This document shows positions 16,584-56,650 of a DNA stretch of 64,000 nt, piece after piece. A model generated the notes under the pieces. That model was not told the origin of the DNA, searched no databases, and worked only from the letters and a program-made list of their open reading frames with translations. Numbering within the stretch: position 1 is the first letter of the stretch; the number at the start of each line of letters is the position of its first letter. This DNA comes from an uncultured Bacteroidales bacterium (GTDB lineage Bacteria > Bacteroidota > Bacteroidia > Bacteroidales > UBA10428): assembly GCA_963752195.1 (NCBI GenBank), contig CAVVXI010000004.1, positions 2,053,641 to 2,117,640 of the forward strand, in the 5' to 3' direction. The position numbers and the translations under genes were made by a program.

Positions 16584-16680
16584 GAGTGACGAGTGACAAG
16601 AACCCGGGGATAAGTTGGAAATTGAGAAATGAAAAATGAAGAACTAAAAGATAAAAGTGACTGGTGACTGGTGACTGGTG
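16584..16680. repeat. Phased heptamer block: (GAGTGAC)2, then nine consecutive in-phase heptamers drifting from GAAATTG through AAAAGTG to (ACTGGTG)3
   Basis: Read directly from the sequence. Units start every 7 nt from 16618 to 16680 with no phase break. Confidence 0.85.
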
Positions 16681-16697
16681 ACGCTTACGCCGCTGAC

Positions 16698-16769
16698 CTG
16701 CAGAACTGCAGAACTGCAAAACTGCAAAACTGCAAAACTGCAAAACTGCAAAACTGCAAAACTGCAAAA
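16698..16769. repeat. Octamer tandem array: (CTGCAGAA)2(CTGCAAAA)7, 9 units
   Basis: Read directly from the sequence. It is a perfect 8-bp register. A twin array lies at 36224..36295 in the same plus-strand orientation. Confidence 0.95.
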
Positions 16770-16794
16770 CTATTTCCAACCTACAGCCTGGCAG

Positions 16795-16842
16795 CCTAAA
16801 CCCCTAAACCCCTAAGCCCCTAAGCCCCTAAGCCCCTAAGCC
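16795..16842. repeat. Octamer tandem array: (CCTAAACC)2(CCTAAGCC)4, overlapping the valS stop codon
   Basis: Read directly from the sequence. On the minus strand it reads GGC TTA GGG GCT TAG, which is the last four codons (GLGA) and stop of valS. Confidence 0.95.
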
Positions 16843-19455
16843 CCTGATCGCATCCTCTATAGCCCTGATTTTGTGTTCGGCATCGGCTTTTTTGCGGTTT
16901 TCGAGTTCAATCACCTTGGCGGGAGCATGGCTTGTAAAATGCTCATTGTTAAGTTTTTTCATTACCGTTTCAAGAAATCCCTGCACATATTCCAGTTCCT
17001 TTCGGAGTTTAGCCAGTTCATCCTCGGCATTATGAAAATCACCTAACGGCAGATAAAATTCAGCGTAGGAGAGAATCAGGCTGGCAGCGCCTTCCGGTTT
17101 CTCCTCTATGATGATAATCTCTTCGAGGTTGCCCTGCTTAATAATAACCGGATTAAAATCCCCCTGGTAATTGGACGCTTTTACATACAGCGTGAGTTTG
17201 TTTTTACCGGGTATCTGGTTATCGACCCGTACATTACGGATAAATGTCACGATTTCCTTAACCTGTTCAAAAAGGCGGAGCTTTTCATGATCGATGGGCT
17301 TTACCGTGGGTGTTCTTTCATACATAATGCTGAATCCCTGTGGTCGCTCTTTCAGCAAGTGCCAGATTTCTTCCGTAATGAAAGGAACAAATGGATGAAG
17401 GACTTTAAGCAGCACCTCAAACATTTCAATTGTGGTTTGATACGTACGGCCGTCTATCGATTTCTGGTATTCCGGCTTAATTATTTCAAGATACCACGAT
17501 GAAAACTCATCCCAGAATAACTTATAGGCAATCATGAGCGCCTCCGAGATACGGTATTGGGCAAAAGCTTCCTCAATTTCAGAAACGCCCTGTTTTAACC
17601 GCTCATAGAACCATACCGTAGCCCTTTCAGATGCCGGTGTGGGATAGAGGGTTTTATCCACATTCCATGATTTTACAAGCCGGAAAGCATTCCATATTTT
17701 GTTTGTGAAATTCCGTCCCTGTTCAGGTAAACTTTCATCAAACAGCAAGTCATTCCCGGCAGGGGAACACAACAACATCCCCACCCTTACACCATCGGCG
17801 CTGTACTTGGCAATCAGATCAAGGGGATCAGGGGAATTGCCAAGAGATTTTGACATTTTACGCTTTCTCGCATCGCGAACTATGCCGGTAAGATATACAT
17901 TCTTAAATGGCTTGTCTTTCCTGTACTCATACCCGGCCATGATCATTCGGGCCACCCAGAAAAAGAGAATTTCAGGGGCTGTAATCAGATCATCTGTAGG
18001 ATAATAATAGTTAATATCCGCATTCCCCGGATTCCGGATTCCGTCAAATACGGAAATCGGCCAAAGCCAGGAAGAAAACCATGTGTCCAGAACATCCTCA
18101 TCCTGCCGGAGATCATCCTCATTCAGGGCTGGATTGCCTGTTTTAAGCCGCGCAGCTTCCAGGGCCTCCTGCGGATTCAATGCAACAACATAATCAGAGC
18201 CTGTTCCGATATAATAAGCAGGTATCCGCTGGCCCCACCATAACTGGCGGGAGATACACCAATCCCTGACATTTTCCATCCAGTTCCGGTAGGTGTTCTT
18301 GAACTTCGGGGGACACAGGGTTATATTGTCGTTCATTACATTTTCAAGGGCCGGCCCTGCCAATTGTTTCATCTTAACGAACCACTGGATGCTTAAACGA
18401 GGCTCAATGACGGAATCCGTACGTTCTGAAAAACCGACTTTGTTTACATACTCTTCAGTCTTAACAAGCAACCCTTCTTCATTTAATCGGTCGACCACCA
18501 GATCCCGTGCTTTAAACCGGTCGGTTCCTACAAAAAGCAGGGCTTTCTCGTTCAATGTGCCATCAAGGTTAAAAATATCGATTACGGGAAGATTGTATTT
18601 TATGCCAATTTCATAATCATTGATATCATGGGCCGGGGTGATTTTAAGGCAGCCGGTTCCAAATTCCATTTCAACATATGCATCCTGGATTATGGGAACA
18701 ACACGATTTACCATGGGCACAATTGCTTTTTTACCTGCCAGGTGCCGGTAACGTTCATCTGCCGGATTCACACATACGGCAGTATCACCAAGGATAGTTT
18801 CGGGCCGGGTGGTTGCGATGGTTACAAATTCGTCCGAACCTTCAATCCGGTATTTGACATAATACAATTTGGACTTCACTTCACGGTAGAGCACTTCTTC
18901 ATCCGAAACCGCAGTACGAGCCTGGGGATCCCAGTTTACCATGCGGATACCCCTGTATATAAGACCCTTCTTAAACAAATCCACAAATACACGAATAACA
19001 CTTTCTGACATTTCATCATCCATCGTAAATTTTGTCCGTTCCCAGTCACAGGATGCTCCCAGTTTTTTTAGCTGTTCAAGGATAATTCCCCCGTGCTTTT
19101 GCTTCCATTCCCATGCATAACTCAGGAATTGCTCTCGTGTCAGTGTATTTTTATCAATGCCTTCACTTTTCAGTTTGGCTACCACCCTTGCTTCGGTTGC
19201 AATTGAAGCATGATCCGTGCCAGGCACCCAGCAGGCATTCTTTCCCTGCATCCTTGCCCTGCGAACCATAATATCCTGGATTGTATTGTTCAGCATATGA
19301 CCCATATGCAATACACCTGTAACATTAGGAGGCGGAATTACGATTGTATACGGCTTCCGGCTGTCCGGCACCGATTTAAAGAAATCCCTTGCCATCCAGT
19401 AACTATACCATTTATCTTCAACTTGTTTAGGGTCATATTTGCTCGGAATTTCCAT
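16828..19455 (-). CDS. valS: Valine--tRNA ligase
   Basis: Class I signatures are [13 protein letters not shown] (HIGH) and KMSKSLGN (KMSKS). A C-terminal coiled-coil is present. The start was set to ATG 19455 ([17 protein letters not shown]), the usual ValRS N-terminus. Confidence 0.95.
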
Positions 19456-19625
19456 GGGGTAGAATATTTTTGTCAGTATCAACTCATTTTAAGCCCACAA
19501 AAATAGAACTTTTCGGTTGATTGTTGGCACAACTGTCAACTATCACCGACCAACCCTCAACTAATTTACTGCATATGCCTAACATGATTTATGTATTAAA
19601 ATGCAAAACATATGATGAAAACCAT

Positions 19626-19633
19626 TATTTTTG
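19626..19633 (+). promoter_or_regulatory. Candidate Bacteroidota -7 promoter box (TATTTTTG) for the DUF1573 gene
   Basis: It matches TAnnTTTG and lies 27 nt upstream of the ATG at 19660. No convincing -33 TTTG was seen. Confidence 0.3.
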
Positions 19634-19659
19634 CAGCTTCAAAGAAACACCATTAAGTT

Positions 19660-20128: not shown

Positions 20129-21328
20129 ATGCCTACTATATCGAACCGGGGCCAATTAATGCCCAATTCCCCAATCCGGAAACTCGTCCCTCTTGCTGAA
20201 GAAGCTGCTAAAAGAGGTTGCACCGTTTACAGGCTGAATATCGGCCAGCCCGATATTCTCACTTCACCCAATGCAATTGAAGCGATCCGGAATATAGACT
20301 CAAAAATCATCGATTACGGCCATAGCGCAGGGAATGAATCCCTGCGCCGGAAATTCACCGACTATTATAAAACGATCGGGGTAGATCTTGACTACCAGGA
20401 TATTCTTATTACAACCGGCGCTTCGGAGGCTATTACGCTTACCCTGCTTACCTGCCTGAATGCCGGGGATGAGATCATTGTGCCTGAGCCTTTCTATGCC
20501 AATTATTTCAGTTTCGCCACGGCTTCCGATGTAATTGTGGTCCCTGTTACATCCAGCATAGAAAGCGGATTCGCCCTTCCTCCCATCCGCGAATTCGAAA
20601 AGAAGATAACGAACCGTACACGCGCAATAATTATCTGCAACCCGAATAATCCGACGGGCTACCTTTATTCAAAAGCAGAACTTGAGCAGTTACGTGACCT
20701 CGTTAAAAAACATGACCTGTTCTTTCTTTGTGATGAGGTTTACAGGGAACTCTGCTATGACGGCGGTGAATTCACATCGGCCATGCAACTGGCGGGAATT
20801 GAACAAAACCTGATCCTCATAGATTCTGTATCTAAAAGGTATAGTGCCACCGGACTCCGGGTGGGAGTTCTTGCATCCAGAAACAGGGAGTTGCTCCAGA
20901 CTGCCCTGAAATTCTGCCAGGCAAGGCTTTGTCCGCCCAACCTGGGCCAGCTGGCCGCTGAGGCAGCGCTCGACTCCCCCCAGCAATATCTTGATTATGT
21001 GTACAATGAATTCCTCGAAAGACGGAATTTTGTGGTAAAAGCCCTTAATGATATAAAAGGAGTATTCTGCCCCATGCCCCGTGGTGCATTTTATGTTATG
21101 GCCAAGTTGCCGGTAGATGACGCAGAGAAATTTTCCATGTGGATGCTCCAGGAATTCGATTATAAAAAGCAAACCGTAATGCTGGCCCCCGGTTCCGGTT
21201 TTTACTTCAATACAGACCTCGGCAGGCAGGAAGTTCGTATAGCCTATGTACTTAACCTCGATGACCTGAAAAAAGCCATGGAATGCCTGCGGTACGGGTT
21301 GGAAGCATACCCCGGCAGAATTCAGTGA
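20129..21328 (+). CDS. Pyridoxal phosphate-dependent aminotransferase (class I/II, aspartate aminotransferase-like)
   Basis: Blocks are NPNNPTG, DEVY and the PLP-lysine block SVSKRYSATGLRVG. The length is 399 aa. Confidence 0.88.
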   Translation: MPTISNRGQLMPNSPIRKLVPLAEEAAKRGCTVYRLNIGQPDILTSPNAIEAIRNIDSKIIDYGHSAGNESLRRKFTDYYKTIGVDLDYQDILITTGASEAITLTLLTCLNAGDEIIVPEPFYANYFSFATASDVIVVPVTSSIESGFALPPIREFEKKITNRTRAIIICNPNNPTGYLYSKAELEQLRDLVKKHDLFFLCDEVYRELCYDGGEFTSAMQLAGIEQNLILIDSVSKRYSATGLRVGVLASRNRELLQTALKFCQARLCPPNLGQLAAEAALDSPQQYLDYVYNEFLERRNFVVKALNDIKGVFCPMPRGAFYVMAKLPVDDAEKFSMWMLQEFDYKKQTVMLAPGSGFYFNTDLGRQEVRIAYVLNLDDLKKAMECLRYGLEAYPGRIQ

Positions 21329-21418
21329 AAAGATAAAAACGAATAACTATAAGTTGAAGATCATTCCAGTTAATGATGTGGTTTTCCACTTTTAGTTTTT
21401 ATCTTTTAGTTTTTCACT
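21324..21418. repeat. Inverted heptamer-repeat arms between convergent genes
   Basis: The left arm is AGTGAAAAGATAAAAAC and contains the aminotransferase stop TGA at 21326-21328. The right arm is the heptamers CTTTTAG TTTTTAT CTTTTAG TTTTTCA at 21389-21416. GATAAAAAC pairs with GTTTTTATC, and AGTGAAAA pairs with TTTTCACT. Confidence 0.6.
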
Positions 21419-21424
21419 AAAATT

Positions 21425-25843: not shown

Positions 25844-26480
25844 AATGACGAAAAACTGGGAAGAAAAACTGGCTGCGGAATTAAAAAAACCATTGCCGGG
25901 AATTGATGCACAGTTTAGAATGTCCCCCGATGTCAGGCGTCCCGTTTCCATGGAATATCCGTTAAAAAATGCCGGGGTACTCATCCTGCTGTATCCGGAC
26001 AGGAACCATATATGCACGGTCTTCATCAAACGCACGGAATATGATGGTGTGCATAGCGGACAGGTGAGCCTTCCCGGAGGAATGTTCAAAGAGGAAGATG
26101 GTTTGCTTATGAACACTGCCTTGCGGGAGGCAAACGAGGAAACAGGTATCGATATTTTATCGGTAACAATTATCGGCCAATTAACACCCTTGCATATACC
26201 GGTCAGCAATGTAAATGTGTATGCATTTGTTGGAGTGGCCGGCAGCCGGCCGGCTTTCATCCACGATCCGGCTGAAGTACAGTACCTGATTGAGGAAAGC
26301 CTGGAAGAGCTTTTAAGCGAAGTAAATCACAAAACAAAAACCATGACTTTGTTTGGAAATGAAGTCATTGTTCCCTATTTCGACATTAAAGGCAATCATA
26401 TTTGGGGCGCCACCGCTATGATCATCAGTGAGTTTTCGGAGATTGTGAAGAGAGTGAAAAAAATGATGAATGATGAATGA
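25836..26480 (+). CDS. NUDIX hydrolase (CoA pyrophosphatase-like)
   Basis: The NUDIX box is present (LPGGMFKEEDGLLMNTALREANEETGI). The last five codons and stop (MMNDE*) lie in a GATGAAT heptamer array. Confidence 0.8.
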   Translation: MTEMTKNWEEKLAAELKKPLPGIDAQFRMSPDVRRPVSMEYPLKNAGVLILLYPDRNHICTVFIKRTEYDGVHSGQVSLPGGMFKEEDGLLMNTALREANEETGIDILSVTIIGQLTPLHIPVSNVNVYAFVGVAGSRPAFIHDPAEVQYLIEESLEELLSEVNHKTKTMTLFGNEVIVPYFDIKGNHIWGATAMIISEFSEIVKRVKKMMNDE

Positions 26481-26645
26481 TGAATTATGAATGGCGGGAA
26501 GCGTACTATTATCAAAATGAAAAAACCTCCGGAGGTCAAAACTCCGGAGGTCCGTATCTTAAATCTGATATTATCATTAGCGCGCATTGCGCCATTCATA
26601 ATTCATAATTCATAATTCATAATTCATAATTCATAATTCATAATT
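26463..26645. repeat. Large inverted heptamer-repeat structure between convergent genes
   Basis: The left arm is (GATGAAT)3(TATGAAT)GGCG at 26463-26496. The right arm is CGCC...(CATAATT)7 at 26590-26645. The innermost 15 bp (GAATTATGAATGGCG / CGCCATTCATAATTC) are perfectly complementary. The spacer holds CTCCGGAGGTC twice and a GCGCGCATTGCGC mini-palindrome. Confidence 0.85.
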
Positions 26646-30248: not shown

Positions 30249-30253
30249 TGAAG

Positions 30254-30362
<109 letters not shown>

Positions 30363-30431
30363 ATTTTGCCCCGCCATCGGCGGGGGTTATATTTTAACAC
30401 GCCGGAAACATTGTATATTAAGCTGTCAACA

Positions 30432-33328
<2,897 letters not shown>

Positions 33329-33382
33329 TTGTACTTACAACTTAATATACAAATTATTCCAGCATGTCAAAGAACTTAATTT

Positions 33383-33417
33383 AATTATGAATTATGAATT
33401 ATAAATGATGAATTTAA
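33383..33417. repeat. Heptamer array AATTATG AATTATG AATTATA AATGATG AATTTAA in the 23S/tRNA-Ala spacer
   Basis: Read directly from the sequence. It is the same motif family and plus-strand orientation as the left arm at 26463. Confidence 0.85.
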
Positions 33418-33539
33418 AATCCACACCCATAAAAAAACAAGCAGTAATGAAACAACCGAATGTTTCCGTTTCCTAAACTACATTACTTATTTAAAAGAAC
33501 TGAAATTTCGAATTTTAATAGACCACAAACTAAAATTTG

Positions 33540-33613: not shown

Positions 33614-33634
33614 GAGGAATTATCTGTTTATTTT

Positions 33635-33692: not shown

Positions 33693-33698
33693 ATTAAG

Positions 33699-33946: not shown

Positions 33947-35468
<1,522 letters not shown>

Positions 35469-36295: not shown

Positions 36296-36350
36296 CCTCT
36301 TTTTGATTTAAAATAATATCATACCTTCGTATTCACTAATTTAATCCTGT

Positions 36351-40220: not shown

Positions 40221-40406
40221 TTCTTTATCCGGGGCTGTGTCATTTAAAAATTATGACCTCACGTTCGGACAAGGCTCCACCTTGGACAAATTTATGTTAC
40301 CAGGCTCCGCCTGATAATTATTACAAGATTGCAAGTAAAATATCACCGCGAATATCACAGAAACCTCATTGCATTTGATTAACCGGTAAAAAAAAGGTAC
40401 ATACTA

Positions 40407-40433
40407 TCCGCGAGATTCGCGAGATCAGCGAGA
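40407..40433. repeat. Nonamer tandem repeat TCCGCGAGA TTCGCGAGA TCAGCGAGA
   Basis: Read directly from the sequence, in the spacer between the convergent HK and amidotransferase genes. One isolated CTGCAAAA unit follows at about 40453. Confidence 0.8.
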
Positions 40434-40471
40434 GAATAAGCCCCGATCCGAACTGCAAAATTACCGAACCT

Positions 40472-41233: not shown

Positions 41234-41743
41234 ATGAAGATGAGTCTTAAAATAATGATGTCCGCCTGGCTTGTTCTCCTTTTCACATCCTGCCATAATC
41301 ATACCCCTGAGGTACAAGCGACTGCTCAGTTAGCAGACTCAGGGATTACCAAAAACATGGAGGTGGCTGATACAATCATTTACCAGGTCATCATCAGCAA
41401 TCCCAATCCTGATGATTCGTGGACCACCGAATGCCTGCGGGGACTTAACCGAAAGACGCTTGTTGACAGTATTTTCAAAATGGTTTATGATGGGAGACTT
41501 ATTGCTGTCAACCGTGAAACCCGCGAAAAATTAACGGTAAAGCAGTTGCGGGATATGGAAAAAGCCGATGGATTCAGCCGGGATGAAATTGGCATGATCC
41601 AGTTCACGGAGGCCTGGTATCTTGATCCTGCCAACAGGAACATGACAAAAAAAGTACTGGCTATGGACCTCGGATACAATTACTACACCAGTGAAGGTGA
41701 CCTGGTCGGATATAAATCCCTGTTCAGGGTGGAAATGAAATAG
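41234..41743 (+). CDS. Hypothetical lipoprotein
   Basis: A lipoprotein signal is present (LVLLFTSC). I recognised no family. Confidence 0.5.
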   Translation: MKMSLKIMMSAWLVLLFTSCHNHTPEVQATAQLADSGITKNMEVADTIIYQVIISNPNPDDSWTTECLRGLNRKTLVDSIFKMVYDGRLIAVNRETREKLTVKQLRDMEKADGFSRDEIGMIQFTEAWYLDPANRNMTKKVLAMDLGYNYYTSEGDLVGYKSLFRVEMK

Positions 41744-41836
41744 GGACGAGTGACAAGTGACAAGAGACAAGCCAAATGCCAAACCCCAGAACATCTTCTT
41801 TCGTGTCCCTCGTCACTTGTCCCTTGTCCCTTTTTT
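41743..41836 (+). terminator. Long heptamer-built hairpin plus T6 (intrinsic terminator-like)
   Basis: The left arm is GGGACGA GTGACAA GTGACAA GAGACAA G (41743-41771). The right arm is CGTGTCC CTCGTCA CTTGTCC CTTGTCC C (41802-41830). By my count 24 of 29 positions pair. TTTTTT follows at 41831-41836 and the loop is 30 nt. Confidence 0.7.
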
Positions 41837-41873
41837 ACTATTTTAGCGTCGGAAATACATTCAAATTGACTTT

Positions 41874-46137: not shown

Positions 46138-46848
46138 ATGCTGAAAAAGCTCCTGTTGGCATTTCTACCCTTGTTATGTGTCCTGAATCTTGCGGCCCAA
46201 AAAGAATTTACACCTTCTACTTATCTGGGGATTGCTGCAGGCGGTGCTTTTAGCCATGCTGGTTTTACTCCTTCCGTTAAACAGAAAATGGTTGCCGCCA
46301 ATTCCTATGGTCTGATTTTCAGGCATGTTTCCGAACCCCATATCGGTATTCAGCTCGAACTCAATTATGCAGGACGGGGATGGACTGAAAACAGGGATTC
46401 TTTGGGCGATTACACGCGAAAACTCAGTGTCATTGATATACCCGTTACTGCCGTATTTATTATCGGAAGCAAAAACCTGAGATTTGCTTTTAACCTGGGC
46501 CCGGATGTGACGTACCTGGCAGATGACAAGGAGGAGATTTCGATTATAGATGCCGAGTATGTTCCCGATTATTACCGGTTTGTACACGACGGTAAATTAT
46601 ATCCCGAATATGGCAATCCCCTGTATTATGGCTATTACGGCAAACCTCTTACACAGGCCTGGTCGTTCGGATTTATTGGCGGAGCCTCGGTAGAATGGTA
46701 TACAAAATTTGGTGCCTTTGGTATCCGCGCCTCATATAGCTATATGCTTACAAATTATTTCCCGCTTGATGAGGATGTTTTTTATTACGAGGCCTCCAAA
46801 TCACAAACGCTCAACCTGGGTGTAAGTTATTTTATAACGCTGCACTAA
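46138..46848 (+). CDS. Outer-membrane beta-barrel protein (PorT/OmpA-like small porin family)
   Basis: It has a signal peptide (LNLAAQ) and alternating hydrophobic/aromatic beta-strand patterning. The terminal strand is aromatic-rich (LNLGVSYFITLH). Confidence 0.65.
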   Translation: MLKKLLLAFLPLLCVLNLAAQKEFTPSTYLGIAAGGAFSHAGFTPSVKQKMVAANSYGLIFRHVSEPHIGIQLELNYAGRGWTENRDSLGDYTRKLSVIDIPVTAVFIIGSKNLRFAFNLGPDVTYLADDKEEISIIDAEYVPDYYRFVHDGKLYPEYGNPLYYGYYGKPLTQAWSFGFIGGASVEWYTKFGAFGIRASYSYMLTNYFPLDEDVFYYEASKSQTLNLGVSYFITLH

Positions 46849-47896
46849 TAAGATTCAAGAAAGTACAAGTCCGGATTATCCAGAAATCGTTCATCCCTCA
46901 TGCCTGTATGGTTAAACATGATCACACTTCCTACCCCAGCTTCCGGGTAAATCCGGATTTCGCAATAATATCCGCCCCCTCCGCCCGCATGTGTATAAAA
47001 TTGTTTGCCCTTTAATCTTCCTGTGAACCAGGATAAACACATCCCTGTTGGCGTGTTACCGTTGGTTATGTTTTCAGTGAACATCTTTTTTTGATACTTG
47101 ACATAATAATCCTTAAACGGCTTCCATTGATGCTCGGGTGCATCCATGAATTTTGATTTATCGATAAGCAAACCCAATACAGCATTTGAAAGGCTGAAAT
47201 TTTTGTGGTATCCTTTTGCGTGTTGATTTGTCCCTATTTCAAAGCCAAGTTCATTTTCAGGAATATTTAAAGGCTTGATTATTGTAGAATGAATGTGGTT
47301 CTCATAACTCATTCCGCTTACTCTTTCAATCACTTGCCCCAGTAAAACATAGCCCAGGTTCGAATAGGCGAATTTTTCATTTGGCTTGAATTTTACCTTA
47401 AATTCTCCGCTTTTTTGCCTTGTCCAAGCAGGATTTGACCAAGTCCGATCGGGCTTACTGTGTTTGGATCATCGATATAGCCCTGATTCTGTACTATAGA
47501 TTGCTGGAAATAAAATTGCGCCCTTGTCTTTTCTCCGGCAAAATGAGCCAACAGTCCTGCAATCTCATAAGCCCTTTGAGTCGGGATGTATCTTCTCCAT
47601 CAGGGTATTCACCAGTTCCAGGGCTTCTTTTTCCTTCCCCTGGCTGACATAGCAATAGCCCAGCAGCTTGTATGTATCCCAGTAGGAGGTACTGTTGAGT
47701 TCAAGGAATTTTTTAAGCCCGCTTTCTGACCGTTCCGGTTTGTTTCCATTATTTTGCTGTTCCCGGTCCGCATTCTTCACCCGGTTGCGAATAACCGGAG
47801 CTTCAAAACCTTCTTTCATAATAACTACATAATGCTTCTGTGCGGATATTCCGAGGGAAAATGCCAGCATCAAAATAAGAATAAATGATTCTTCAT
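46845..47896 (-). pseudogene. Decayed gene: signal peptide, TPR-like segment and the C-terminal two-thirds of a beta-lactamase-family serine hydrolase, split over four reading-frame segments
   Basis: The hydrolase part keeps the YxN motif (FAYSNLGYVLLGQVIERVSGMSY) and a late HAGGGGGY block, but I found no SxxK nucleophile motif. Three frame changes coincide with homopolymers: plus-strand A4 at 47872-47875, G3 at 47583-47585 and T6 at 47411-47416. Single-base length changes at these runs restore one continuous frame starting MKNHLFLFLMLAFSLGISAQ (ATG at 47896). Confidence 0.55.
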
Positions 47897-50138: not shown

Positions 50139-51293
50139 ATGGGATATTTTGCCAGAAATATAAATGATGTTGCCCGGCATATTCTGTCCTTATGGATCCT
50201 CCTGCTTTTACCGCTTATTTGCAGCGGACAGCCTTTCCAAACCGACACATTATGGATAAAAGAAGCAGCGTTTGCGCCGGTTATCGATGGAAATCCGTCT
50301 GATGATTGCTGGGAATCCATTGCCTGGGAATCCATCAGCCAGGTTTGGATACCCTGGGGAAGTTCCGTCGATTCCGCTGATTTTAGCGGCCGATACAAGG
50401 TGTTATGGTCGTCTGCGCAAAATCTGCTGTATGTTCTGGCTGAAATCACGGATGATATTTATGTTGACGGGTATGTATACAAGAGCAGTCCTGAAAATAA
50501 CAACTATCCCGACTACGATCTCCTGGAAGTTTTTCTCGATGAAAATGCCTCAAAAGGGAAGCATGTGTTCGATGGAACAGGCCAAACAGGAATCGACTGG
50601 GGATATAATGCCGAAAATGCCTGGTCTTATCATATTATGGTCAATAGTCCGCCAGATGGAGATACTACGCAGAAAAAGAACGTGTGTGATATTGCAGGTA
50701 CAAACTGGTCAGATGAATGGATTGTAAATTATAGGGACCACATGCCCGAATTTGCCCTTTCCAGGCAGGGAAACCATTATTGCTGGGAATTTTCGCTTAA
50801 GGTTTTTGATGAGAATTACAATCCGGCTGATCCTTCCGACGAAAACAGGATAATGCTTCAACCGGGTAAAATCATGGGTTTGTCGTTTGCTTATTGCGAC
50901 AATGATGAAGCGGGGACAACGCGTGATAATTTCATTGGTTCGGTTTGGGTACCTGAGGAAAATTTTAATGATCATTGGATTAATGCCGATTACTTCAGGG
51001 CTGCAAGGCTCACAGGCAATTCCATTCCGACAGGGGGTGAAGATAATCCCGAAAACACTGCGCAGTTGCTTTATGATCCTTTGCTGCGCGAACTTACAGT
51101 TATTCCGAATCCCGTTTTCACACAGGTAACCCTGTACAATATGCAGGGTATGCCAGTTCAAAAACAGGATCCTAAACGGAATTGCCAGAACTGTACAAAG
51201 AATTTTTCGTTTATAAATTTGCCTGATGGCATTTATCTTGTAGCATCCGAATCAAAGGGCCACAGAGATGTTATCAAACTAATAGTTTATTGA
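50139..51293 (+). CDS. CBM9-like (DOMON-like) sugar-binding protein with a T9SS type A sorting domain
   Basis: A signal peptide is present. The CBM9-like opening is IDGNPSDDCWESIAW ... LLYVLAEITDD. The C-terminus reads VIPNPVFTQVTLYN ... LPDGIYLV ... IKLIVY. Confidence 0.6.
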   Translation: MGYFARNINDVARHILSLWILLLLPLICSGQPFQTDTLWIKEAAFAPVIDGNPSDDCWESIAWESISQVWIPWGSSVDSADFSGRYKVLWSSAQNLLYVLAEITDDIYVDGYVYKSSPENNNYPDYDLLEVFLDENASKGKHVFDGTGQTGIDWGYNAENAWSYHIMVNSPPDGDTTQKKNVCDIAGTNWSDEWIVNYRDHMPEFALSRQGNHYCWEFSLKVFDENYNPADPSDENRIMLQPGKIMGLSFAYCDNDEAGTTRDNFIGSVWVPEENFNDHWINADYFRAARLTGNSIPTGGEDNPENTAQLLYDPLLRELTVIPNPVFTQVTLYNMQGMPVQKQDPKRNCQNCTKNFSFINLPDGIYLVASESKGHRDVIKLIVY

Positions 51294-53317
51294 TCATCGC
51301 AAAATATTTGACTTTTGAAATTATCGGGAATGATAAGCCTATGAAAAAAATGGTACAATTCCTCCGAAATTTGTTCGGCAAACCGCGTACCGCATTTTAT
51401 GCGGCCGGAATAACCTCAACCATATGGTTCCTGATTCGCGTAATTCCCAAGCCGACCCGTGCATCGTATCCGTGTATGCGAGCTGCAGCGCCCATTATGT
51501 CGGGATTTGTAATCTACATGGCTGGTCTCTGGGCTTCTGCATTTGCCTTTAAACAGGCACGGATAAGTTTTTCGCGGAACAGGTATACCCATGGATTCAT
51601 GTTCCTTCTTGTGCTCCCTGTGTTCCTGGTCATTGCCGCCTCGGGGGATGTAAAACCATCCTGGGCGGTACAGGCAATGGTCCAGGATCCGCCCGACGGC
51701 GCGAACCAGCCTGTAGGTATTGCGCAAGGCATTATTCCGGGCAGGGTTGCCTGGGCCTATGACAGGGCTTCTACCGATTCCCTGTGCACAAACAATGCCG
51801 GCGATCGCTATTACCGGGCGGAGAATTATGACCAGTCAATCATCGACAGTATGATGAGGAAATCGGTGCTGGGCATTACCGGTGCCCTGAACATTAAAGA
51901 TGCATGGGATAGTATTTTCACCTATCATAATATCCGGAAAACAAACCAGAGAAAAAGCTACCTGCCGGGTGAAACAATCTTCATAAAAATTAACCAGGGA
52001 ACGGCAAGCTGGCTGTATATGAACGGAACTGCTTACGAGGCACCCGATGTGATTCCGCCAAGCGACGAATGGAAAACTGCCTATGCAGGCGCCTGTGAGG
52101 CATCACCCCCGGTTGCACTGGCCCTTCTCCGGCAACTTGTCAATGTCTATGGAATTGAACAGCAGAATATTCTGATTGGTGATCCGATTTCCCATATATA
52201 CAAGCACAATTATGATGCCTGGCATGGTGAATTTCCGGATATTAAGTTTATTGACAGGTCCGGTGATTTCGGAAGAACGATTATCCATCCGGGCGATATG
52301 GCTGCCATGCATTATTCCGACCTGGGGACAACTATGCCGGATGCTGTTTCGGACAAACTCTACAAAGAGATGACCGATGCAGCCTATATGATCAATATTG
52401 CTAACCTGAAGCCGCATATTCGCGCAGGGATTACCCTTTGCGCAAAAAACCATTTTGGTTCCCATACCCGGAACGGCGCAGATCACCTGCATCCATCCCT
52501 GATATGCCCGGCAGCCGATGGAAGTCCCACCAATGCAGGATACCAGAAATACAGGGTGCAGGTTGATATAATGGGAAACCGGTTCCTTGGCAGGAATACA
52601 ATGCTGTTTATCGTTGACGGTTTGTGGGGTGGCGGTCCGGAAGAGACAAAGGCCCCCAAAAAATGGAAAATGCCCCCTTTCAACAACGACTGGACTTCCT
52701 CGATATTTATGTCTCTTGACCAGGTTGCGCTGGAGTCAGTATGCTTCGATTTTATCCGTACAGAATTCAATGGCGTGAACCAGCCGGAAACAACTCCAAA
52801 CTGGAGCGGAGTGGATGATTATCTTCACCAGGCCGCCGACAGGCAGAACTGGCCCGATGCAATTACCTATGATCCCAATGAAGAAGGTATTGAATTACCG
52901 AGCCTGGGAACCCATGAACACTGGCAGAATTCCACCACCATGGCCTACAGCAGGAACCTGCAGATTGGCAACGGTATTGAATTATACAGGGTTCCGGCTG
53001 TCAGAACCTATATACCCACCGGTATATCCGCCAGGGAAGAGAATGCCCGCTTTGAAGTTATTTGTTATCCCAACCCTTTTACAGGCTCCACCGCATTCTC
53101 ATATACACTTCTGCAACCTTCACAGGTTAAGATTTCTGTATATGATATGAATGGCAGGTTAATCAAATGCCTCATCAATGACTCCGAACCTGCAGGCGAC
53201 AAACATCTTATCTGGCAGGCTGGCAACGTTGCACCCGGATATTATATGGGATATATTGAAATTGCCTGTCAACAGGAACATTTCCGAAAAACAATCAAAA
53301 TTCAAATAAATAACTAA
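51290..53317 (+). CDS. DUF362-like protein with an N-terminal hydrophobic/YPCM region and a T9SS type A sorting domain (paralog 1)
   Basis: DUF362-like blocks are ETIFIKIN and NLKPHIRAGITLCAKNHFGS. The C-terminus reads CYPNPFTGSTAFSY ... YDMNGRLI ... APGYYMGYI. The start is uncertain: TTG at 51290 overlaps the upstream stop, and ATG at 51341 (MKKMVQF) is the alternative. Confidence 0.7.
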   Translation: MIIAKYLTFEIIGNDKPMKKMVQFLRNLFGKPRTAFYAAGITSTIWFLIRVIPKPTRASYPCMRAAAPIMSGFVIYMAGLWASAFAFKQARISFSRNRYTHGFMFLLVLPVFLVIAASGDVKPSWAVQAMVQDPPDGANQPVGIAQGIIPGRVAWAYDRASTDSLCTNNAGDRYYRAENYDQSIIDSMMRKSVLGITGALNIKDAWDSIFTYHNIRKTNQRKSYLPGETIFIKINQGTASWLYMNGTAYEAPDVIPPSDEWKTAYAGACEASPPVALALLRQLVNVYGIEQQNILIGDPISHIYKHNYDAWHGEFPDIKFIDRSGDFGRTIIHPGDMAAMHYSDLGTTMPDAVSDKLYKEMTDAAYMINIANLKPHIRAGITLCAKNHFGSHTRNGADHLHPSLICPAADGSPTNAGYQKYRVQVDIMGNRFLGRNTMLFIVDGLWGGGPEETKAPKKWKMPPFNNDWTSSIFMSLDQVALESVCFDFIRTEFNGVNQPETTPNWSGVDDYLHQAADRQNWPDAITYDPNEEGIELPSLGTHEHWQNSTTMAYSRNLQIGNGIELYRVPAVRTYIPTGISAREENARFEVICYPNPFTGSTAFSYTLLQPSQVKISVYDMNGRLIKCLINDSEPAGDKHLIWQAGNVAPGYYMGYIEIACQQEHFRKTIKIQINN

Positions 53318-54367: not shown

Positions 54368-56380
54368 ATGAAAAACATGTGGAGAAAAATCATGGATTGG
54401 ATGTTTATCTGCCATCCCGAGACAGGAAAAATCAGCGGATTCCGGAAACCAAAACTTTTTACCGTCATCCCTTTTATTATAATTGGCCTGGGTTCATTCA
54501 TCTGGTTATTGATCCGCGTGCTTCCCAAGCCAAGCCGGATAACATATCCCTGTATGAAGGTTGCGATGCCTCTGGCATTTTCATTCCTGGCCTACCTGGC
54601 TTCCATGAGTGCGACGGTTGTGCTTTTCCGGAAATCAATTACAAACTTCAAGGCACTCCGGTATAAATATGCCCTGCTTTTCCTGGTTTTTGCCCTCGTT
54701 GCGGGGACAGGGACACTGATATACGAGTCATTGCCATCCAATGCCGCCGGTGTGCATAGTCATGCTACTCTTTTTGAAGATCCCCTCGGCCCGAATACAC
54801 CCATAGGGACACCAAAGGGACTTTTCCCGGGCAGGGTGGTATGGGCTTTCAATCCGGATGCAACCAATGCGGCCTGCACGAACAGCAATCACAGCAATGC
54901 CTACTGGCTTGAAAAAAACTGCGATCAGGCAGTGGTGGATAAAATGTTTTCTGACGGCATTAAAGCATTAACCGGGAAAGAAACTCATGCCGAGGCCTGG
55001 GATGCTATTTTTCATTATTTCAATACGAACCATGCAAAGGGAGATATAGGCTATGCACCTGACGAGACCATCTTTATTAAAATAAACGCGGTTACTGCCT
55101 GGAGCGGCGCTGAACCGGATGGCGTTATGCCTGATTACCTGGGCATTGAAGACGATACATCACCACAGGCTATCCTTGCTTTGTTGAGACAACTTGTGAA
55201 TGAAGCCGGTGTTCCCCAGGAGAATATATTCATTGGTGACCCCATGGCCGATATTTGGAATACGTTATATGATAAATTTTATGCCGAATTCCCCGATATT
55301 AACTATACATCAAAAAGAACAATTACCGGAAGATATAAGTTAACGCCTGACACAAAGCCCGGTATCTATTATTCTGACAAAGGAACGGTGATGGATGATG
55401 ATCCTTCAAATTTCCATGCCAGCCATTGTTTCTTTAAAGAAATGGAAGATGCCGATTACATCCTGAATGTACCTGCAATGAAAGGTCACCGCTGGGGTGG
55501 TGTCACGATGTTCGCAAAAAATTATTTCGGGGCGAATACCACGGATGGGTCATGGCAGCTTCACAAAGGCCTGATGAAACCCGACAGCGATCCTTTACGG
55601 ACAGGCTACAATCACTACCGTGTTTTTGTGGATCTGATGTCGAGCAAATACCTGGGGGGTAAAACTTTGCTGTATTTTATGGACGCACTGTGGTCAACCA
55701 GCTTTGAACATCAGAAACCACAGAAATTCAGGACCGCTCCGTTTAACAATGACTGGTGTTCTTCCCTTTTGTTTTCGCTGGATCCGGTAGCCATTGAATC
55801 CGTTGGGCTCGATATTCTGCAGAAAGAATTTACAGTGGAAGAAATCGACAATAACAACAGTACACCAGATCGTTATACCTACGTTCAGTGGAATGGCGTC
55901 GATGATTATTTACACCAGGCTGCAAGCAGCGACTGGTGGCCTGAAGGCATAACCTATGATCCCGACAGTTCCGGCACACCGATTGGTAGCCTGGGTGTTC
56001 ATGAACACTGGAACAATACGACCGATATGGAATATTCAAGGAACCTGGGAACCGGTGAAGGAATTGAACTTGTAAAATTGTTTGAAATCCCTACCGCCAC
56101 CAGGGAAAACTTATCTGATTTTACGCTGGAAGCATTCCCCAACCCGACGACAACAACTGCAACGATTCGCTTTCATCTTGACCAAGGCAGCCGGACCAGG
56201 ATCGACATCTATTCCATTGATGGGAAATTTATCCTGACTTTAGTAAATGGTCAGCTTCAGGCCGGTGATCAACATATCGAATGGAATCCGGGAAATCTGA
56301 AAGGCACCTATTTTGTGAAACTGATCCTTTTTGACGGATCGGCACAAAAGGTATATAAGACGAGATTGCAGGTTATTTAA
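54368..56380 (+). CDS. DUF362-like protein with an N-terminal hydrophobic/YPCM region and a T9SS type A sorting domain (paralog 2)
   Basis: It aligns over its full length with 51290..53317. Shared blocks are ETIFIKIN, LALLRQLVN, PFNNDW, GVDDYLHQAA, ITYDP and HEHW. The C-terminus reads FPNPTTTTATIRF ... YSIDGKFI ... LKGTYFVKL. Confidence 0.7.
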   Translation: MKNMWRKIMDWMFICHPETGKISGFRKPKLFTVIPFIIIGLGSFIWLLIRVLPKPSRITYPCMKVAMPLAFSFLAYLASMSATVVLFRKSITNFKALRYKYALLFLVFALVAGTGTLIYESLPSNAAGVHSHATLFEDPLGPNTPIGTPKGLFPGRVVWAFNPDATNAACTNSNHSNAYWLEKNCDQAVVDKMFSDGIKALTGKETHAEAWDAIFHYFNTNHAKGDIGYAPDETIFIKINAVTAWSGAEPDGVMPDYLGIEDDTSPQAILALLRQLVNEAGVPQENIFIGDPMADIWNTLYDKFYAEFPDINYTSKRTITGRYKLTPDTKPGIYYSDKGTVMDDDPSNFHASHCFFKEMEDADYILNVPAMKGHRWGGVTMFAKNYFGANTTDGSWQLHKGLMKPDSDPLRTGYNHYRVFVDLMSSKYLGGKTLLYFMDALWSTSFEHQKPQKFRTAPFNNDWCSSLLFSLDPVAIESVGLDILQKEFTVEEIDNNNSTPDRYTYVQWNGVDDYLHQAASSDWWPEGITYDPDSSGTPIGSLGVHEHWNNTTDMEYSRNLGTGEGIELVKLFEIPTATRENLSDFTLEAFPNPTTTTATIRFHLDQGSRTRIDIYSIDGKFILTLVNGQLQAGDQHIEWNPGNLKGTYFVKLILFDGSAQKVYKTRLQVI

Positions 56381-56388
56381 GGCAACCT

Positions 56389-56416
56389 TCTCATCTCTCA
56401 TCTCTCATCTCTCATC
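56389..56416. repeat. Heptamer array (TCTCATC)4
   Basis: Read directly from the sequence. It starts 9 nt after the stop of the DUF362 paralog 2 gene. Confidence 0.9.
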
Positions 56417-56500
56417 CGACCGCTTCAAGGGTCTGCGACCACTTGAAGGGTCTGGCATTGCCAAAAAGGAAAGTATAATTCCTATTGTATGACGTTTCAT

Positions 56501-56528
56501 TAGTTGTTAGTTGCTAGTTGATTATTGG
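56501..56528. repeat. Heptamer array TAGTTGT TAGTTGC TAGTTGA TTATTGG
   Basis: Read directly from the sequence. Confidence 0.85.
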
Positions 56529-56551
56529 TTCTGAAGTCCTGTGGCGCCAGC

Positions 56552-56586
56552 GTCACTCGTCACTCGTCACACGTCACTCGTCACTT
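56552..56586. repeat. Heptamer array GTCACTC GTCACTC GTCACAC GTCACTC GTCACTT (complement of the GAGTGAC family)
   Basis: Read directly from the sequence. The same family occurs at 16584 and 41743-41830. Confidence 0.9.
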
Positions 56587-56594
56587 TCTTATCA

Positions 56595-56650
56595 CTTTTA
56601 GTTTTTCGTTTTTAGTTTTTAGTTTTTAGTTTTTCATTGTTCATTGTTCA
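56595..56650. repeat. Heptamer array CTTTTAG TTTTTCG (TTTTTAG)3 TTTTTCA (TTGTTCA)2, overlapping the aspartate kinase stop
   Basis: Read directly from the sequence. It holds an in-phase 7-nt register over 8 units. On the minus strand it reads AAC AAT GAA CAA TGA, the C-terminal NNEQ and stop of the gene at 56634..57914. The same TTTTTAG family occurs at 21389. Confidence 0.9.

Follow-up and report, generated by a model that had tools for sequence, protein, structure and literature searches.

Background

The REP, BIME and REPIN elements are short, dispersed, hairpin-forming sequences of proteobacterial 3' spacers, often convergent ones, where they serve as terminators or mRNA stabilisers; inverted doublets occur among them. 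Each REP is one imperfect palindrome, ~20-40 nt long, whose GTAG/CTAC end is conserved, and it is mobilised by a RAYT transposase. [quoted passage not shown] Hairpins formed by STRR sequences occur in spacers (PMC2670836).

The heptamer arrays of Xanthomonas and Nostoc, built of GGGAATC or GGGGAYT units (Rehm et al. 2015, PMC4692102), are 89-93% intergenic, show a strong bias towards positions adjoining or overlapping a stop codon, favour convergent over divergent spacers, and include 70-75 inverted pairs able to form stem-loops. Sister species carry them at the same loci in different lengths, a role in termination was tested, and transcript ends are enriched at the repeats (PMC4692102). Long simple sequence repeats with 5-11-nt units were surveyed by Mrazek et al. 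2007; in the summary given by PMC4679880, heptanucleotides are dominant, the phylogenetic distribution is sporadic, non-triplet units are excluded from coding DNA, and polymerase slippage was proposed. In the Bacteroidetes, several distinct heptamer direct repeats lie next to each other in spacers of Gramella, Aequorivita and Elizabethkingia (MacGregor 2015, PMC4679880), and these "assemblages of heptamer repeats" are missing from the same spacer in close relatives.

The window analysed here, a stretch of 64,000 nt from an uncultured Bacteroidales rather than a cyanobacterium, harbours families of 7- and 8-base tandem repeats in its non-coding spacers (Table 1). With a probability of roughly 60%, we regard them as dispersed short tandem repeat families (heptamers, octamers and rarely nonamers) of the same kind as the cyanobacterial STRR and the long simple sequence repeats. 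They are the Bacteroidales counterpart of repeats known from cyanobacteria and Xanthomonas, and not a new kind of system; an earlier, sequence-only reading of the window knew of no description of such a system, for which precedents are in fact published (STRR; PMC4692102; PMC4679880).

Distribution of the arrays

All nine spacers listed in the sequence-only reading carry tandem arrays, as identified by Tandem Repeats Finder (TRF) and also visible in the raw sequence. TRF detected 13 arrays of period 7-9 with a score of at least 40 (best, 134) in the real spacers, whereas 100 dinucleotide-preserving shuffles averaged 0.03 arrays and scored 44 at best; chance is therefore excluded. The strong arrays of the window have periods of 7 and 8, with a single 9-base exception. 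When relatives of at least 90% identity are included, the periods are 7 (26 arrays), 8 (20) and 9 (2), with no array of period 6 or 10. Array length is 18-74 nt. The 5168 non-coding bases, 8% of the window, hold 572 of the 626 array bases (91%), and the remaining 54 belong to the last few codons of three ORFs. Across 161 Bacteroidota sequences, arrays amount to 0.13 bp/kb of coding DNA and to 3.5-13.2 bp/kb of spacers.

Arrays often start at or within a stop codon, as in the case of valS, the NUDIX gene, aspartokinase and block H. Among spacers of at least 50 nt in the window, arrays are present in 4 of 5 convergent, 2 of 10 co-directional and 1 of 5 divergent ones, and in both array-bearing co-directional spacers the array begins at the upstream stop codon. 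The proposed location after stop codons, especially between convergent genes, thus holds within the window (hypergeometric p = 0.03, by our own arithmetic), but the 3'-end bias is only a trend in the 161 Bacteroidota sequences (odds ratio 2.2, p = 0.13), and block F is an exception, with a 5' context and no preceding ORF.

Table 1. Arrays and associated features of the window, with positions, strand where assigned, and composition
Feature	Position	Strand	Composition and context
Block A	16584-16845		TRF: GAGTGAC x2, GTGACTG x3.7, CTGCAAAA x9.2, CCTAAGCC x6.4
A module 1	16584-16600		GAGTGAC x2 then AAG (from sequence); unit family common to H arms and I 56551-56585 (opposite strand)
A module 2	16619-16656		Degenerate A-rich heptamers; reverse complement of TTTTATC/TTTTAGT/TTCATTT module in B and I
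A module 3	16657-16692		GTGACTG x3.7 (TRF) and non-repeat flank GCTTACGCC
A module 4	16698-16771		CTGCAGAA x2 then CTGCAAAA x7; octamer family shared with F
A module 5	16795-16845		CCTAAACC x2 then CCTAAGCC x4; abuts and overlaps valS stop codon (16828-16830, minus strand)
Block B	21321-21421		Hairpin between convergent genes; TRF: CTTTTAG x3.7 at 21389-21414
C left arm	26462-26493		(GATGAAT)3 then TATGAAT; TRF: AATGATG x4.6; overlaps NUDIX gene stop codon
C inner hairpin	26523-26553	minus	Conventional terminator-like hairpin between C arms; GGACCTCCGGAG stem then T6
C right arm	26594-26645		ATTCATA x7.4, 100% purity; ends 7 nt from SLT-domain gene stop codon; pairs with 26462-26493
Block D	33383-33432	minus	rRNA spacer tRNA-Ala/23S; AATTATG x4.6 and degenerate complementary partner, small helix (z -3.7)
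Block E	33622-33694	minus	rRNA spacer tRNA-Ile/tRNA-Ala; TGTTGATT x4 facing AAATCATC x3.6, octamer-array hairpin
Block F	36223-36296		ACTGCAAA x9.2, variant units at left end; 55 nt upstream of GT2 gene start
Block G	40406-40460		Between convergent genes; ATCCGCGAG x3.1 (9-mer, 40406-40433), then one AACTGCAAAA unit at 40451-40460
Block H	41741-41838	plus	Long-stem intrinsic-terminator-like hairpin; starts at TAG stop codon
Block I	56389-56650		Six arrays (TRF)
I module 1	56389-56416		TCTCATC x4; begins 8 nt past stop codon of DUF362/T9SS gene
I module 2	56500-56520		TTAGTTG x3
I module 3	56536-56585		Flank GGCGCCAGC then CGTCACT x5; colinear with reverse complement of A 16657-16692
I modules 4-5	56596-56650		TTTTAGT x5.6 then TTCATTG x2.6; overlaps aspartokinase stop codon (minus strand)

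Hairpin-forming and arm-less blocks

Hairpins made of paired complementary arrays are present in blocks B, C, D, E and H, with folding z-scores versus shuffles of -4.3, -8.4, -3.7, -3.8 and -6.4, respectively. Inverted arms had been described as a frequent property of the arrays, which is true of these five blocks but not of A, F, G and I, where complementary arms are absent. The right arm of B (21379-21421) consists of TTTTAGT/TTTTATC heptamers, and the left arm (21321-21363), which overlaps the aminotransferase gene's stop codon, is its imperfect complement (43 nt, 74% complementary; z -4.3 and -4.1). The C arms (47 nt, 83% complementary; z -8.4 and -8.7) enclose an inner hairpin of 12 pairs, 7 of them G-C, followed by TTTTTTCATTTTG. 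The spans assigned by TRF are 33383-33418 for D, 33625-33687 for E and 41745-41832 for H. Orthologues of D contain 4.4-4.6 units in relatives L164, L165 and L166. The E arms extend over 36 nt (75% complementary), and the hairpin is conserved in L164-L166, with 28 pairs kept and no compensatory changes in the three genomes compared.

The left arm of H is composed of GGGACGA, GTGACAA, GTGACAA and GAGACAA, and the right arm, beyond a 23-nt loop, of GTGTCCC, TCGTCAC, TTGTCCC and TTGTCCC, followed by T6 (folding energy -39.4 kcal/mol). L164-L167 keep this architecture; each arm there has 4-6 units, octamer arrays lie within the loops, and the z-scores in five genomes range from -4.6 to -9.2. Owing to its conserved long-stem hairpin and T-run, H is likely an intrinsic terminator; judging by this anatomy, it may work as an extended Rho-independent terminator or 3'-end stabiliser. 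The same probably applies, on anatomical grounds, to B and the outer stem of C. D and E are rRNA-spacer helices, presumably removed during rRNA processing. The notion that the arrays build terminators is therefore retained for H but not as a general reading, given the arm-less blocks, the conventional hairpin in C and the 5' location of F. The array-free spacer at 13892-13920 contains an ordinary terminator hairpin of 12 bp, in which one mismatch separates 5 from 7 pairs.

Folding does not exceed that of shuffles in F, in G and distally in I (modules 4-5, z -0.1), and it is somewhat better in A (z -3.9) and proximally in I (z -1.95); in module 4 of A, the minus-strand RNA is predicted to self-pair via UUGCAG (z -3.9). 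The arm-less arrays are most likely tolerated by-products without a dedicated function.

Units and modules shared among loci

In an all-against-all BLAST of the spacers, the block pairs A-F, A-B, A-H, A-I, B-I, C-D and H-I have stretches of 14-73 nt in common (79-100% identity), and array-free spacers share nothing, one promoter-like match excepted. The earlier claim that motif families recur at distant loci is thereby borne out, and the blocks can be considered one window-wide family with shared units. Module 1 of A matches H (18 nt, 94%) and I (14 nt, 100%), module 2 matches B (20 nt, 95%) and the H-spacer of L164 (35 nt, 89%), and module 3 matches a non-orthologous spacer of L164 (198-226; 29 nt, 96.6%). 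Colinearity between blocks A and I extends over >50 nt and takes in two different arrays and the flank GGCGNNAGC.

Composite modules also recur between genomes. B 21381-21416 and positions 15517-15552 of L165, in the H-spacer and hence at a non-orthologous site, are identical in 35 of 36 nt (97%), and other spacer sequence between the window and the relative genomes sharing this module no longer aligns. The H-spacer of L165 also contains the composite of I modules 4-5 (39 nt, 90%), and GGCGTNAGCGTCACCAGTCAC is present 3' of valS in the window and 3' of the SLT gene in L164. Within L166, the junction (AACTGCAR)n-CTTCTTC-(CTNGTCC)n is found in both the G and H spacers, and CTGCAGAACTTCTTC..GTCCC at two loci. 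Relative to permuted controls, the ACCGATT unit occurs at 5 loci versus 0.35 expected, and exact cross-genome unit matches number 14 (several of them orthologous) versus 1.3 expected. The T-module has no match in 2.9 million viral contigs.

Evolution in related genomes

Five relatives with syntenic gene order (90-93% protein identity) have arrays in the same spacers but differ in copy number and unit variants. This rules out artefacts, and the arrays evolve in the manner of microsatellites. Such differences are seen at several orthologous spacers. Block F has 9.2 units of CTGCAAAA in the window versus 3.5-4.5 units of CTGCAGAA in relatives, whose assemblies contain many frameshifted genes, such that exact counts may carry small errors; these orthologues read (AACTGCAG)3.5-4.5, preceded by (GATCYGCGA)n. 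In the valS 3' spacer, (TTTTGCAG)9 of the window corresponds to a single CTGCAG in L161 (a 93%-identity relative), at the site of A module 4. An array orthologous to that of module 5 is present in L161, and the GGGGCTTA array is retained there with fewer and degenerate units. The G spacer of L166 is an expanded form, (GATCTGCGA)3.4-(AACTGCAR)5.5-CTTCTTC-(CTNGTCC)4, and the PNPOx 3' spacer contains (GGGACAA)2 in L163 versus 4 units in L162. Single degenerate seed units occupy orthologous sites, namely CCCCAGAAC in the H loop of the window and the CTGCAG of L161. Array density among the relatives ranges from 0 to 30 bp/kb.

Across four genomes, D and E show hardly any change. That arrays persist for so long in the same spacers might reflect function instead of neutrality.

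Origin of the arrays

Under the proposed mechanism, a small clade-wide vocabulary of units (GGGACNN/CTTGTCC, GTCACNN, TTTTAGT/TTTTATC, TTCATTG, TATGAAT, NACTGCAR, GATCYGCGA and GGGGCTTA) would be found across many spacers, singly as seeds or in short runs, which may expand, contract and homogenise in situ, presumably by replication slippage and, for paired arrays, by template switching between the arms of the quasi-palindrome. Arrays would survive only where the sequence is unconstrained, i.e., in non-coding spacers as far as the stop codon, which is sometimes part of the array, and in variable helices of rRNA spacers, and a run facing its own complement would yield a long imperfect hairpin. 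Slippage alone cannot account for the composite modules and non-repeat flanks shared by non-orthologous spacers; inter-locus copying or selection must be added. This feature would also suit a small element of composite build, mobile or copy-pasted (REPIN- or MITE-like), with modules in fixed order, seeding 3'-spacer hairpins whose unit number is merely tuned by slippage, as would the A/I colinearity, the near-identical B module in L165, the sequence common to the valS and SLT 3' spacers, the repeated L166 junction and the unit recurrence above permuted controls. We consider such an element rather unlikely, since the order of modules varies between blocks, neither terminal inverted repeats nor target-site duplications can be seen, the 40 window ORFs scanned include no transposase, RAYT or reverse transcriptase, and the T-module is missing from the viral contigs. 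The degenerate seeds at orthologous sites fit local expansion and contraction, and a restricted vocabulary would produce some similarity by convergence.

The sequence-only reading had envisaged a purpose-built, genome-specific system for terminators and "frame-proof" gene ends, in which stop-bearing units of non-triplet length close all three frames within three units. Arrays starting at stop codons are in line with this, as is the enrichment of 4-mers in the units of 46 genomes, which is highest for those containing TGA (ATGA, TGAC, GTGA; z 3.1-3.8), and in L164 and L165 the TAG preceding H is replaced by CAG and the ORF extends into the array region. In L164, however, the ORF reads through the four-unit left arm of H and ends ~50 nt beyond. 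Stop content is not significantly above chance: 16 of 20 units (not independent of one another) contain a stop on either strand versus 59-67% (about 61%) expected from ordinary spacer k-mers (p = 0.06), and in the 161 Bacteroidota sequences 29 of the 39 arrays that immediately follow a stop codon have a closed sense strand versus 24.9 expected (p = 0.08). Moreover, 4 of the 5 arrays 3' of valS leave the sense strand open, F is located upstream of a gene, D and E are inside the rRNA transcript, the general 3' bias is a trend only, and any spacer closes frames within a few dozen codons. Frame-proofing is thus very improbable. Slightly less probable still are multimeric sites for a regulatory or nucleoid-organising DNA- or RNA-binding protein, as proposed for TAACTGA repeats and Nostoc heptamers (PMC4679880; bioRxiv 10.1101/2022.06.06.494920): units are kept across genomes, almost unchanged in D and E, but at least eight unrelated unit families would demand a separate binder each, close relatives differ freely in copy number and unit sequence, and unit orientation relative to neighbouring genes is inconsistent. 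Assembly or sequencing artefacts were rejected and have a negligible probability; repeats can be mis-assembled, and the relatives' assemblies do contain frameshifts, but five independent assemblies from different samples show related units at the same spacers, and arrays of this length are well within a read.

Comparison with known systems

Like the REPs, the dispersed tandem arrays of the window are short and hairpin-forming, lie in 3' spacers, often convergent ones, and include inverted doublets; the REPs differ in having no 7/8-nt periodicity or unit-number variation, and the window ORFs scanned include no RAYT. Block H resembles an intrinsic terminator in its G+C-containing stem followed by T5-6 just past a stop codon, and C holds a standard example, but the H stems of 28-30 bp (four to six heptamers per arm) are far longer than usual, and the loops in relatives reach 100-230 nt with further arrays. 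The assemblages of MacGregor 2015 (PMC4679880) are similar in their side-by-side heptamer arrays in Bacteroidetes spacers. The TAACTGA repeat, in contrast, was not found in the window; it lies mostly just upstream of start codons, and no hairpin pairing or octamers are described for it (PMC4679880). Heptamer dominance, sporadic distribution, exclusion from coding DNA and the idea of slippage are shared with the survey of Mrazek et al. 2007, which, as summarised in PMC4679880, defines a statistical class rather than a system and does not address composite modules and paired arrays. The Xanthomonas and Nostoc arrays (PMC4692102) have in common with the window their intergenic, stop-adjacent location, convergent bias, inverted pairs, and same loci with different lengths; they consist of a single G-rich, quadruplex-forming unit, whereas the window contains many AT-rich or mixed units without G-tracts, octamers and composite blocks.

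As in the STRR, several families of ~7-nt units are arranged in tandem and recur throughout a single genome at many non-coding loci, hairpin formation is often possible, and structural-RNA helices are also occupied (RNase P RNA for the STRR, rRNA spacer helices in the window). Transcript stability has been proposed as a function of the STRR. The canonical STRR units CCCCAGT, TTGGTCA and CAACAGT do not occur in tandem in the window. The window further differs from the STRR in its phylum, Bacteroidota, in octamers that are nearly as common as heptamers, and in blocks that are composites of several different arrays.

Tandem arrays in the window and their host

Tandem arrays were found by Tandem Repeats Finder (TRF) and in the raw sequence at all nine sites that the sequence-only reading had named (blocks A to I, see table). 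In the window spacers, 13 arrays of period 7-9 reach a TRF score of 40 or more, versus a mean of 0.03 in 100 dinucleotide-preserving shuffles of the same spacers. The period is 7 in 13 of 20 window arrays, 8 in six and 9 in one; together with the closest relatives, 26 arrays have period 7, 20 have period 8 and two have period 9, with none of period 6 or 10. Several are highly pure, such as ATTCATA (7.4 units, 100%), CTGCAAAA (9.2 units, 98%) and TCTCATC (4 units, 100%). According to a gene map built from ORFs, Pfam and Rfam, 572 of the 626 array bases lie within the 5168 non-coding bases of the window, and the remaining 54 belong to the last codons of valS, a NUDIX gene and an aspartokinase gene.

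Coordinates of the repeat-array blocks (TRF boundaries) and of the rRNA operon, with the facing arms and their folding
Feature	Position	Strand	Facing arms	Complementarity	Fold z vs shuffles	Other
Block A	16584-16845
Block B	21389-21414		43 nt	74%	-4.3
Block C	26462-26645		47 nt	83%	-8.4 / -8.7
Block D	33383-33418				-3.7	small helix
Block E	33625-33687		36 nt	75%	-3.8
Block F	36223-36296
Block G	40406-40433
Block H	41745-41832		32-39 nt	up to 84%	-6.4
Block I	56389-56650
rRNA operon	30253-35470	minus				tRNA-Ile and tRNA-Ala in spacer

[quoted passage not shown] The window encodes type IX secretion (T9SS) sorting domains, CHU_C, PorP/SprF and Porin_10, and the near homologues of its valyl-tRNA synthetase (ValRS) all come from Bacteroidales/Bacteroidota metagenome-assembled genomes (best identity 74% among GTDB representatives, 73% among metagenome contigs and up to 93% in a large protein collection).

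Some features of the gene content may be recorded here. Two paralogous genes with DUF362 and a T9SS sorting domain (51290-53317 and 54368-56380) lie 1 kb apart and have a common 75-nt stretch of 72% identity (at 52802 and 55889). The RCC1/CBM96/T9SS-tail gene (13955-16571, minus strand) is divided into two overlapping ORFs (13955-14962 and 14862-16571); the protein is a single chain of 815-849 aa in the relatives, and the split is due either to a frameshift or to a sequencing error in the assembly of origin. Two neighboring ORFs lie on the minus strand at 46845-47333 and 47565-47873: one, of 162 aa, aligns with no more than the C-terminal half of the beta-lactamase family, and the other has no family hit. 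Because the relatives carry a 353-aa beta-lactamase gene at this site, the window gene (46845-47873 region) is probably disrupted.

Genomic context of the arrays

Convergent gene pairs flank blocks B, C, G and I. A and H stand in co-directional pairs, where each comes after the stop codon of the first gene, and D and E are inside the 16S-23S spacer. A glycosyltransferase gene begins 55 nt downstream of block F, which lies in a divergent region common with the rRNA promoter where no ORF ends. The claim that the arrays favor gene 3' ends stands within the window, where, among spacers of at least 50 nt, arrays are present in four of five convergent, two of ten co-directional and one of five divergent spacers (hypergeometric p = 0.03). 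In a larger set of 161 Bacteroidota sequences, covering 2.6 Mb around valS, it is a trend only (per-spacer odds ratio 2.2, p = 0.13), with array densities of 0.13 bp/kb in coding DNA and 13.2, 10.9 and 3.5 bp/kb in convergent, co-directional and divergent spacers, respectively. Many arrays in this sample lie no more than 10 nt from a stop codon, and some abut a start codon.

A hot spot specific to valS was considered and rejected: arrays are present in 5 of the 161 valS 3' spacers, the same as the overall rate of about 4% per spacer. The 160 Bacteroidota valS loci (L001-L160) also display a second peak of tandem-repeat periods at 21-23 (38 arrays), besides that at 7-8; it recalls the 23-nt "BrickBuilt" minisatellite of Porphyromonas.

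Shared unit families and composite modules

All-against-all BLAST of the window spacers links A with F, B, H and I, B with I, C with D, and H with I. The array-free spacers have no common sequence in this comparison, apart from one promoter-like match. At least four unit families occur at two to three loci each within the 64 kb, and block A, read on the reverse strand, is colinear with block I over two different arrays together with a flanking non-repeat sequence: GGCGNNAGC-(GTCACNN)n-(TTTTATC/TTTTAGT)n-(TTCATTN)n. Since the spacers are linked by BLAST and A and I are colinear, the arrays were correctly described as a window-wide family.

Near-identity extends to non-orthologous spacers of different genomes. 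Positions 21381-21416 in block B match 15517-15552 of the relative L165 at 35 of 36 nt, and 16664-16692 in block A match 198-226 of L164 at 28 of 29, non-repeat flank included. A CTGCAGAACTTCTTC..GTCCC junction is found at two loci of L166, and the recurrence of some units across genomes exceeds that in permuted controls. A GACT/ACTG core common to different phyla was considered and set aside: among 136 4-mers, ATGA, GTCA and AGTC are enriched in the units with z of about 3.3-3.8, which is borderline after multiple testing.

Two other repeats were observed. Block I has a 19-nt direct repeat between its heptamer arrays (CGACCRCTTSAAGGGTCTG, two copies, 56417-56454), and the two copies together make a local stem (ACCGCUUCAAGGGUC / GACCACUUGAAGGGU). 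A 30-nt inverted match of 83% (TGTTTTGCATTTTA...) connects the divergent, array-free spacers at 19581-19610 and 57915-57944, and may represent a common promoter or operator motif.

Arrays in syntenic relatives

Seven syntenic loci (L161-L167) were compared. The ValRS of L161 is 93% identical to that of the window and those of L162 and L163 80-81%, while the glycosyltransferases of L164-L167 are 90-93% identical; the closest DNA compared is that of relatives at 90-93% protein identity. The relatives carry arrays at the same spacers as the window, with differing unit numbers and unit variants, and the arrays are therefore not assembly artefacts, an explanation for which the sequence-only reading had left room.

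In the three relatives whose sequence reaches the rRNA spacer (L164-L166), block D has AATTATG repeated 4.4-4.6 times. The octamer-arm hairpin of E is also kept, with no compensatory changes among three sequences, too few to inform on covariation. At F, (CTGCAAAA)9 in the window corresponds to (AACTGCAG)3.5-4.5 preceded by (GATCYGCGA)n in the relatives. At G, the window has (ATCCGCGAG)3 and one octamer, versus the full composite (GATCTGCGA)3.4-(AACTGCAR)5.5-CTTCTTC-(CTNGTCC)4 in L166. The plan of H, stop-(GGGACNN)4-6 ... CTTCTTC-(CTTGTCC)4-T5-6, is kept in five of five genomes (z -4.6 to -9.2), its loop carrying a NACTGCAN array of 4-8 units in the relatives and one degenerate unit in the window. 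In the valS 3' spacer, L161 retains the GGGGCTTA array and has a single CTGCAG versus nine octamers in the window, beyond which point the alignment is lost. A convergent spacer of L161 contains an inverted heptamer pair (CTGGATG/CATCCAG) and (CCGAATA)6.7, where the window counterpart has a plain 12-bp terminator hairpin only. Array density is 0 bp/kb in L001, L162 and L163 and 13-30 bp/kb in L164-L166, L002 and L030 (Tangfeifania). The arrays thus undergo microsatellite-type evolution on persistent sites, and the graded relatives render the birth, expansion and loss of single arrays traceable spacer by spacer. Such arrays are likely to be hypervariable strain markers and breakpoints in short-read assemblies.

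H is preceded by TAG in the window and L167, and by CAG in L164 and L165 (14730-15350 and 14914-15504, respectively, orthologues of window 41234-41743), so that the called ORF continues into the heptamer array for 27-37 codons; in L164, its frame stays open owing to an 8-nt variant unit.

Predicted hairpins and terminators

Five blocks (B, C, D, E and H) contain complementary arrays that face each other. The predicted hairpin of H starts from the TAG stop codon (-39.4 kcal/mol) and is followed by T6; its stem of 28-30 bp comprises four heptamers per arm. This combination of a stable stem-loop and a U-tract, on the sense strand and 3' of a stop codon, is kept in L164-L167 and gives H the predicted anatomy of a Rho-independent (intrinsic) terminator. 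In block C, the arrays form an outer stem, and the terminator itself, an ordinary predicted one with a 12-bp stem and T6 (minus strand, 26553-26523), lies between them. The UUUUGCAG array of A pairs with itself through a UGCA core (z -3.9); F, G and distal I fold no better than shuffles. The proposal that the arrays build hairpins and terminators is supported for about half of the blocks (hairpins in B, C, D, E and H). A simple consensus terminator scan, which is blind to long-loop stems like that of H, did no better overall than on shuffles (21 vs. 22.0 and 27 vs. 22.2). The arrays would lengthen terminator hairpins, as predicted by folding, and the helices of the rRNA spacer.

The sole convergent spacer of the window without arrays has a plain intrinsic-terminator-like hairpin at 13892-13920 (GCAGAAACAAGGCA / TGCCTTGTCTCTGC, then GATTTTATC; z -4.7); the ACAAGG/CCTTGT core of the GGGACAA units lies within its stem.

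Stop codons in the repeat units

The suggestion that the units provide frame-proof gene ends found no support. Stop enrichment was tested in two ways, neither of them significant: a stop is present on one or both strands in 16 of 20 units, versus 59-67% for ordinary spacer k-mers read as tandem units (p = 0.06, the units being non-independent), and, in the 161 sequences, 29 of the 39 arrays that immediately follow a stop codon are closed in the sense direction, versus 24.9 for base-shuffled units (p = 0.08). On the 3' side of valS, four of five arrays are open on the sense strand, and the called ORF of L164 and L165 continues through the H-spacer array. The most enriched 4-mers in the units contain TGA (z 3.1-3.8), which needs no function, because arrays that start at a stop codon duplicate only units containing it.

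Origin and spread of the modules

The near-identical composite modules at non-orthologous spacers are not explained by slippage in place. These could point to REPIN-like copying, in which the arrays would be the part that can be seen of a composite micro-element, self-propagating and specific to Bacteroidales, with slippage-prone 7/8-nt array arms, whose modules would be copied between 3' spacers and there install or lengthen terminator hairpins. One such module would be (GATCYGCGA)n-(AACTGCAR)n-CTTCTTC-(CTNGTCC)n and another GGCGNNAGC-(GTCACNN)n-(TTTTAGT/TTTTATC)n-(TTCATTG)n, with copying achieved, for example, by hairpin-primed template switching or by a trans-acting enzyme. The scanned window ORFs and the module alignments, however, yielded no transposase-like gene, terminal inverted repeat or target duplication, and we consider such an element improbable. 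We favor in-situ slippage on a common seed vocabulary with occasional ectopic copying, to which we assign the probability remaining beyond the 15-20% or so accorded to REPIN-like copying. The array set makes it testable why periods of 7 and 8 nt are favored, and how one unit vocabulary and its composite modules reach unrelated spacers.

Carriage of the modules by phages was rejected: the T-module (the TTTTAGT/TTTTATC heptamer array of B, I and, reverse-complemented, A) was not found in 2.9 million viral contigs, and the presence of CTTGTCC x3 in eight viral contigs (G+C 0.23-0.61) shows no more than that this heptamer array arises in many unrelated genomes. These IMG/VR contigs (L168-L175), which include a giant-virus genome, carry GGGACAA/CTTGTCC arrays of 4-21 units; given their range of G+C, the unit therefore expands in very different genomes.

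Comparison with known systems

Several classes of repeat were compared with the window arrays. REP/REPIN sequences are single imperfect palindromes with a conserved terminal tetranucleotide and an associated RAYT, whereas the window arms are periodic arrays with no fixed palindrome, and no RAYT/Y1 transposase occurs among the 40 window ORFs scanned. MITEs are defined inserts flanked by terminal inverted repeats and a target-site duplication, whereas neither the five T-module copies nor A and I align with common boundaries or duplications. The simple sequence repeats of phase-variable contingency loci lie inside coding regions or between promoter elements, where the unit number switches expression; those of the window instead come after stop codons or belong to rRNA spacers, and the sole array upstream of a gene, F, is itself upstream of a conserved promoter-proximal 60 nt.

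The arrays, at 13 against 0.03 in dinucleotide shuffles, do qualify as long simple sequence repeats in the sense of Mrazek 2007 (1-11-nt units, longer than chance). As that work is summarised in PMC4679880, heptanucleotide repeats are the most abundant such class in prokaryotes and are excluded from coding DNA, polymerase slippage being their proposed source. The arrays resemble STRR sequences in their units of about 7 nt (here joined by octamers and one nonamer) and in the dispersal of the same unit families over multiple loci (two to three each in 64 kb). STRR heptamers are described as forming hairpins in spacers (PMC2670836) and as occurring inside the RNase P RNA gene (Vioque 1997, cited in PMC2858038). 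STRR hosts are heterocyst-forming cyanobacteria, whereas the window host belongs to the Bacteroidales, and the canonical units CCCCAGT, TTGGTCA and CAACAGT form no tandem dimer in the window, where none of the published repeat units occurs.

The GGGAATC arrays of Xanthomonas, as described in PMC4692102, are 89-93% intergenic, next to or overlapping a stop codon, rarer between divergent genes and arranged in 70-75 inverted pairs; sister species have them at the same loci but with different lengths, and they show an excess of transcript ends. PMC4679880 mentions in passing several different heptamer repeats in spacers of Gramella, Aequorivita and Elizabethkingia, whose close relatives are without them, and our search for Bacteroidales-specific descriptions returned nothing beyond that paper. 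Because heptamer arrays have been published in cyanobacteria, Xanthomonas and Bacteroidetes, the phenomenon is already known, contrary to the initial impression that no such system had been described. What is new is that it occurs in Bacteroidales, and there with octamers and composite blocks; a phenomenon recorded so far chiefly in cyanobacteria and Xanthomonas is thereby extended to an uncultured clade of Bacteroidales.
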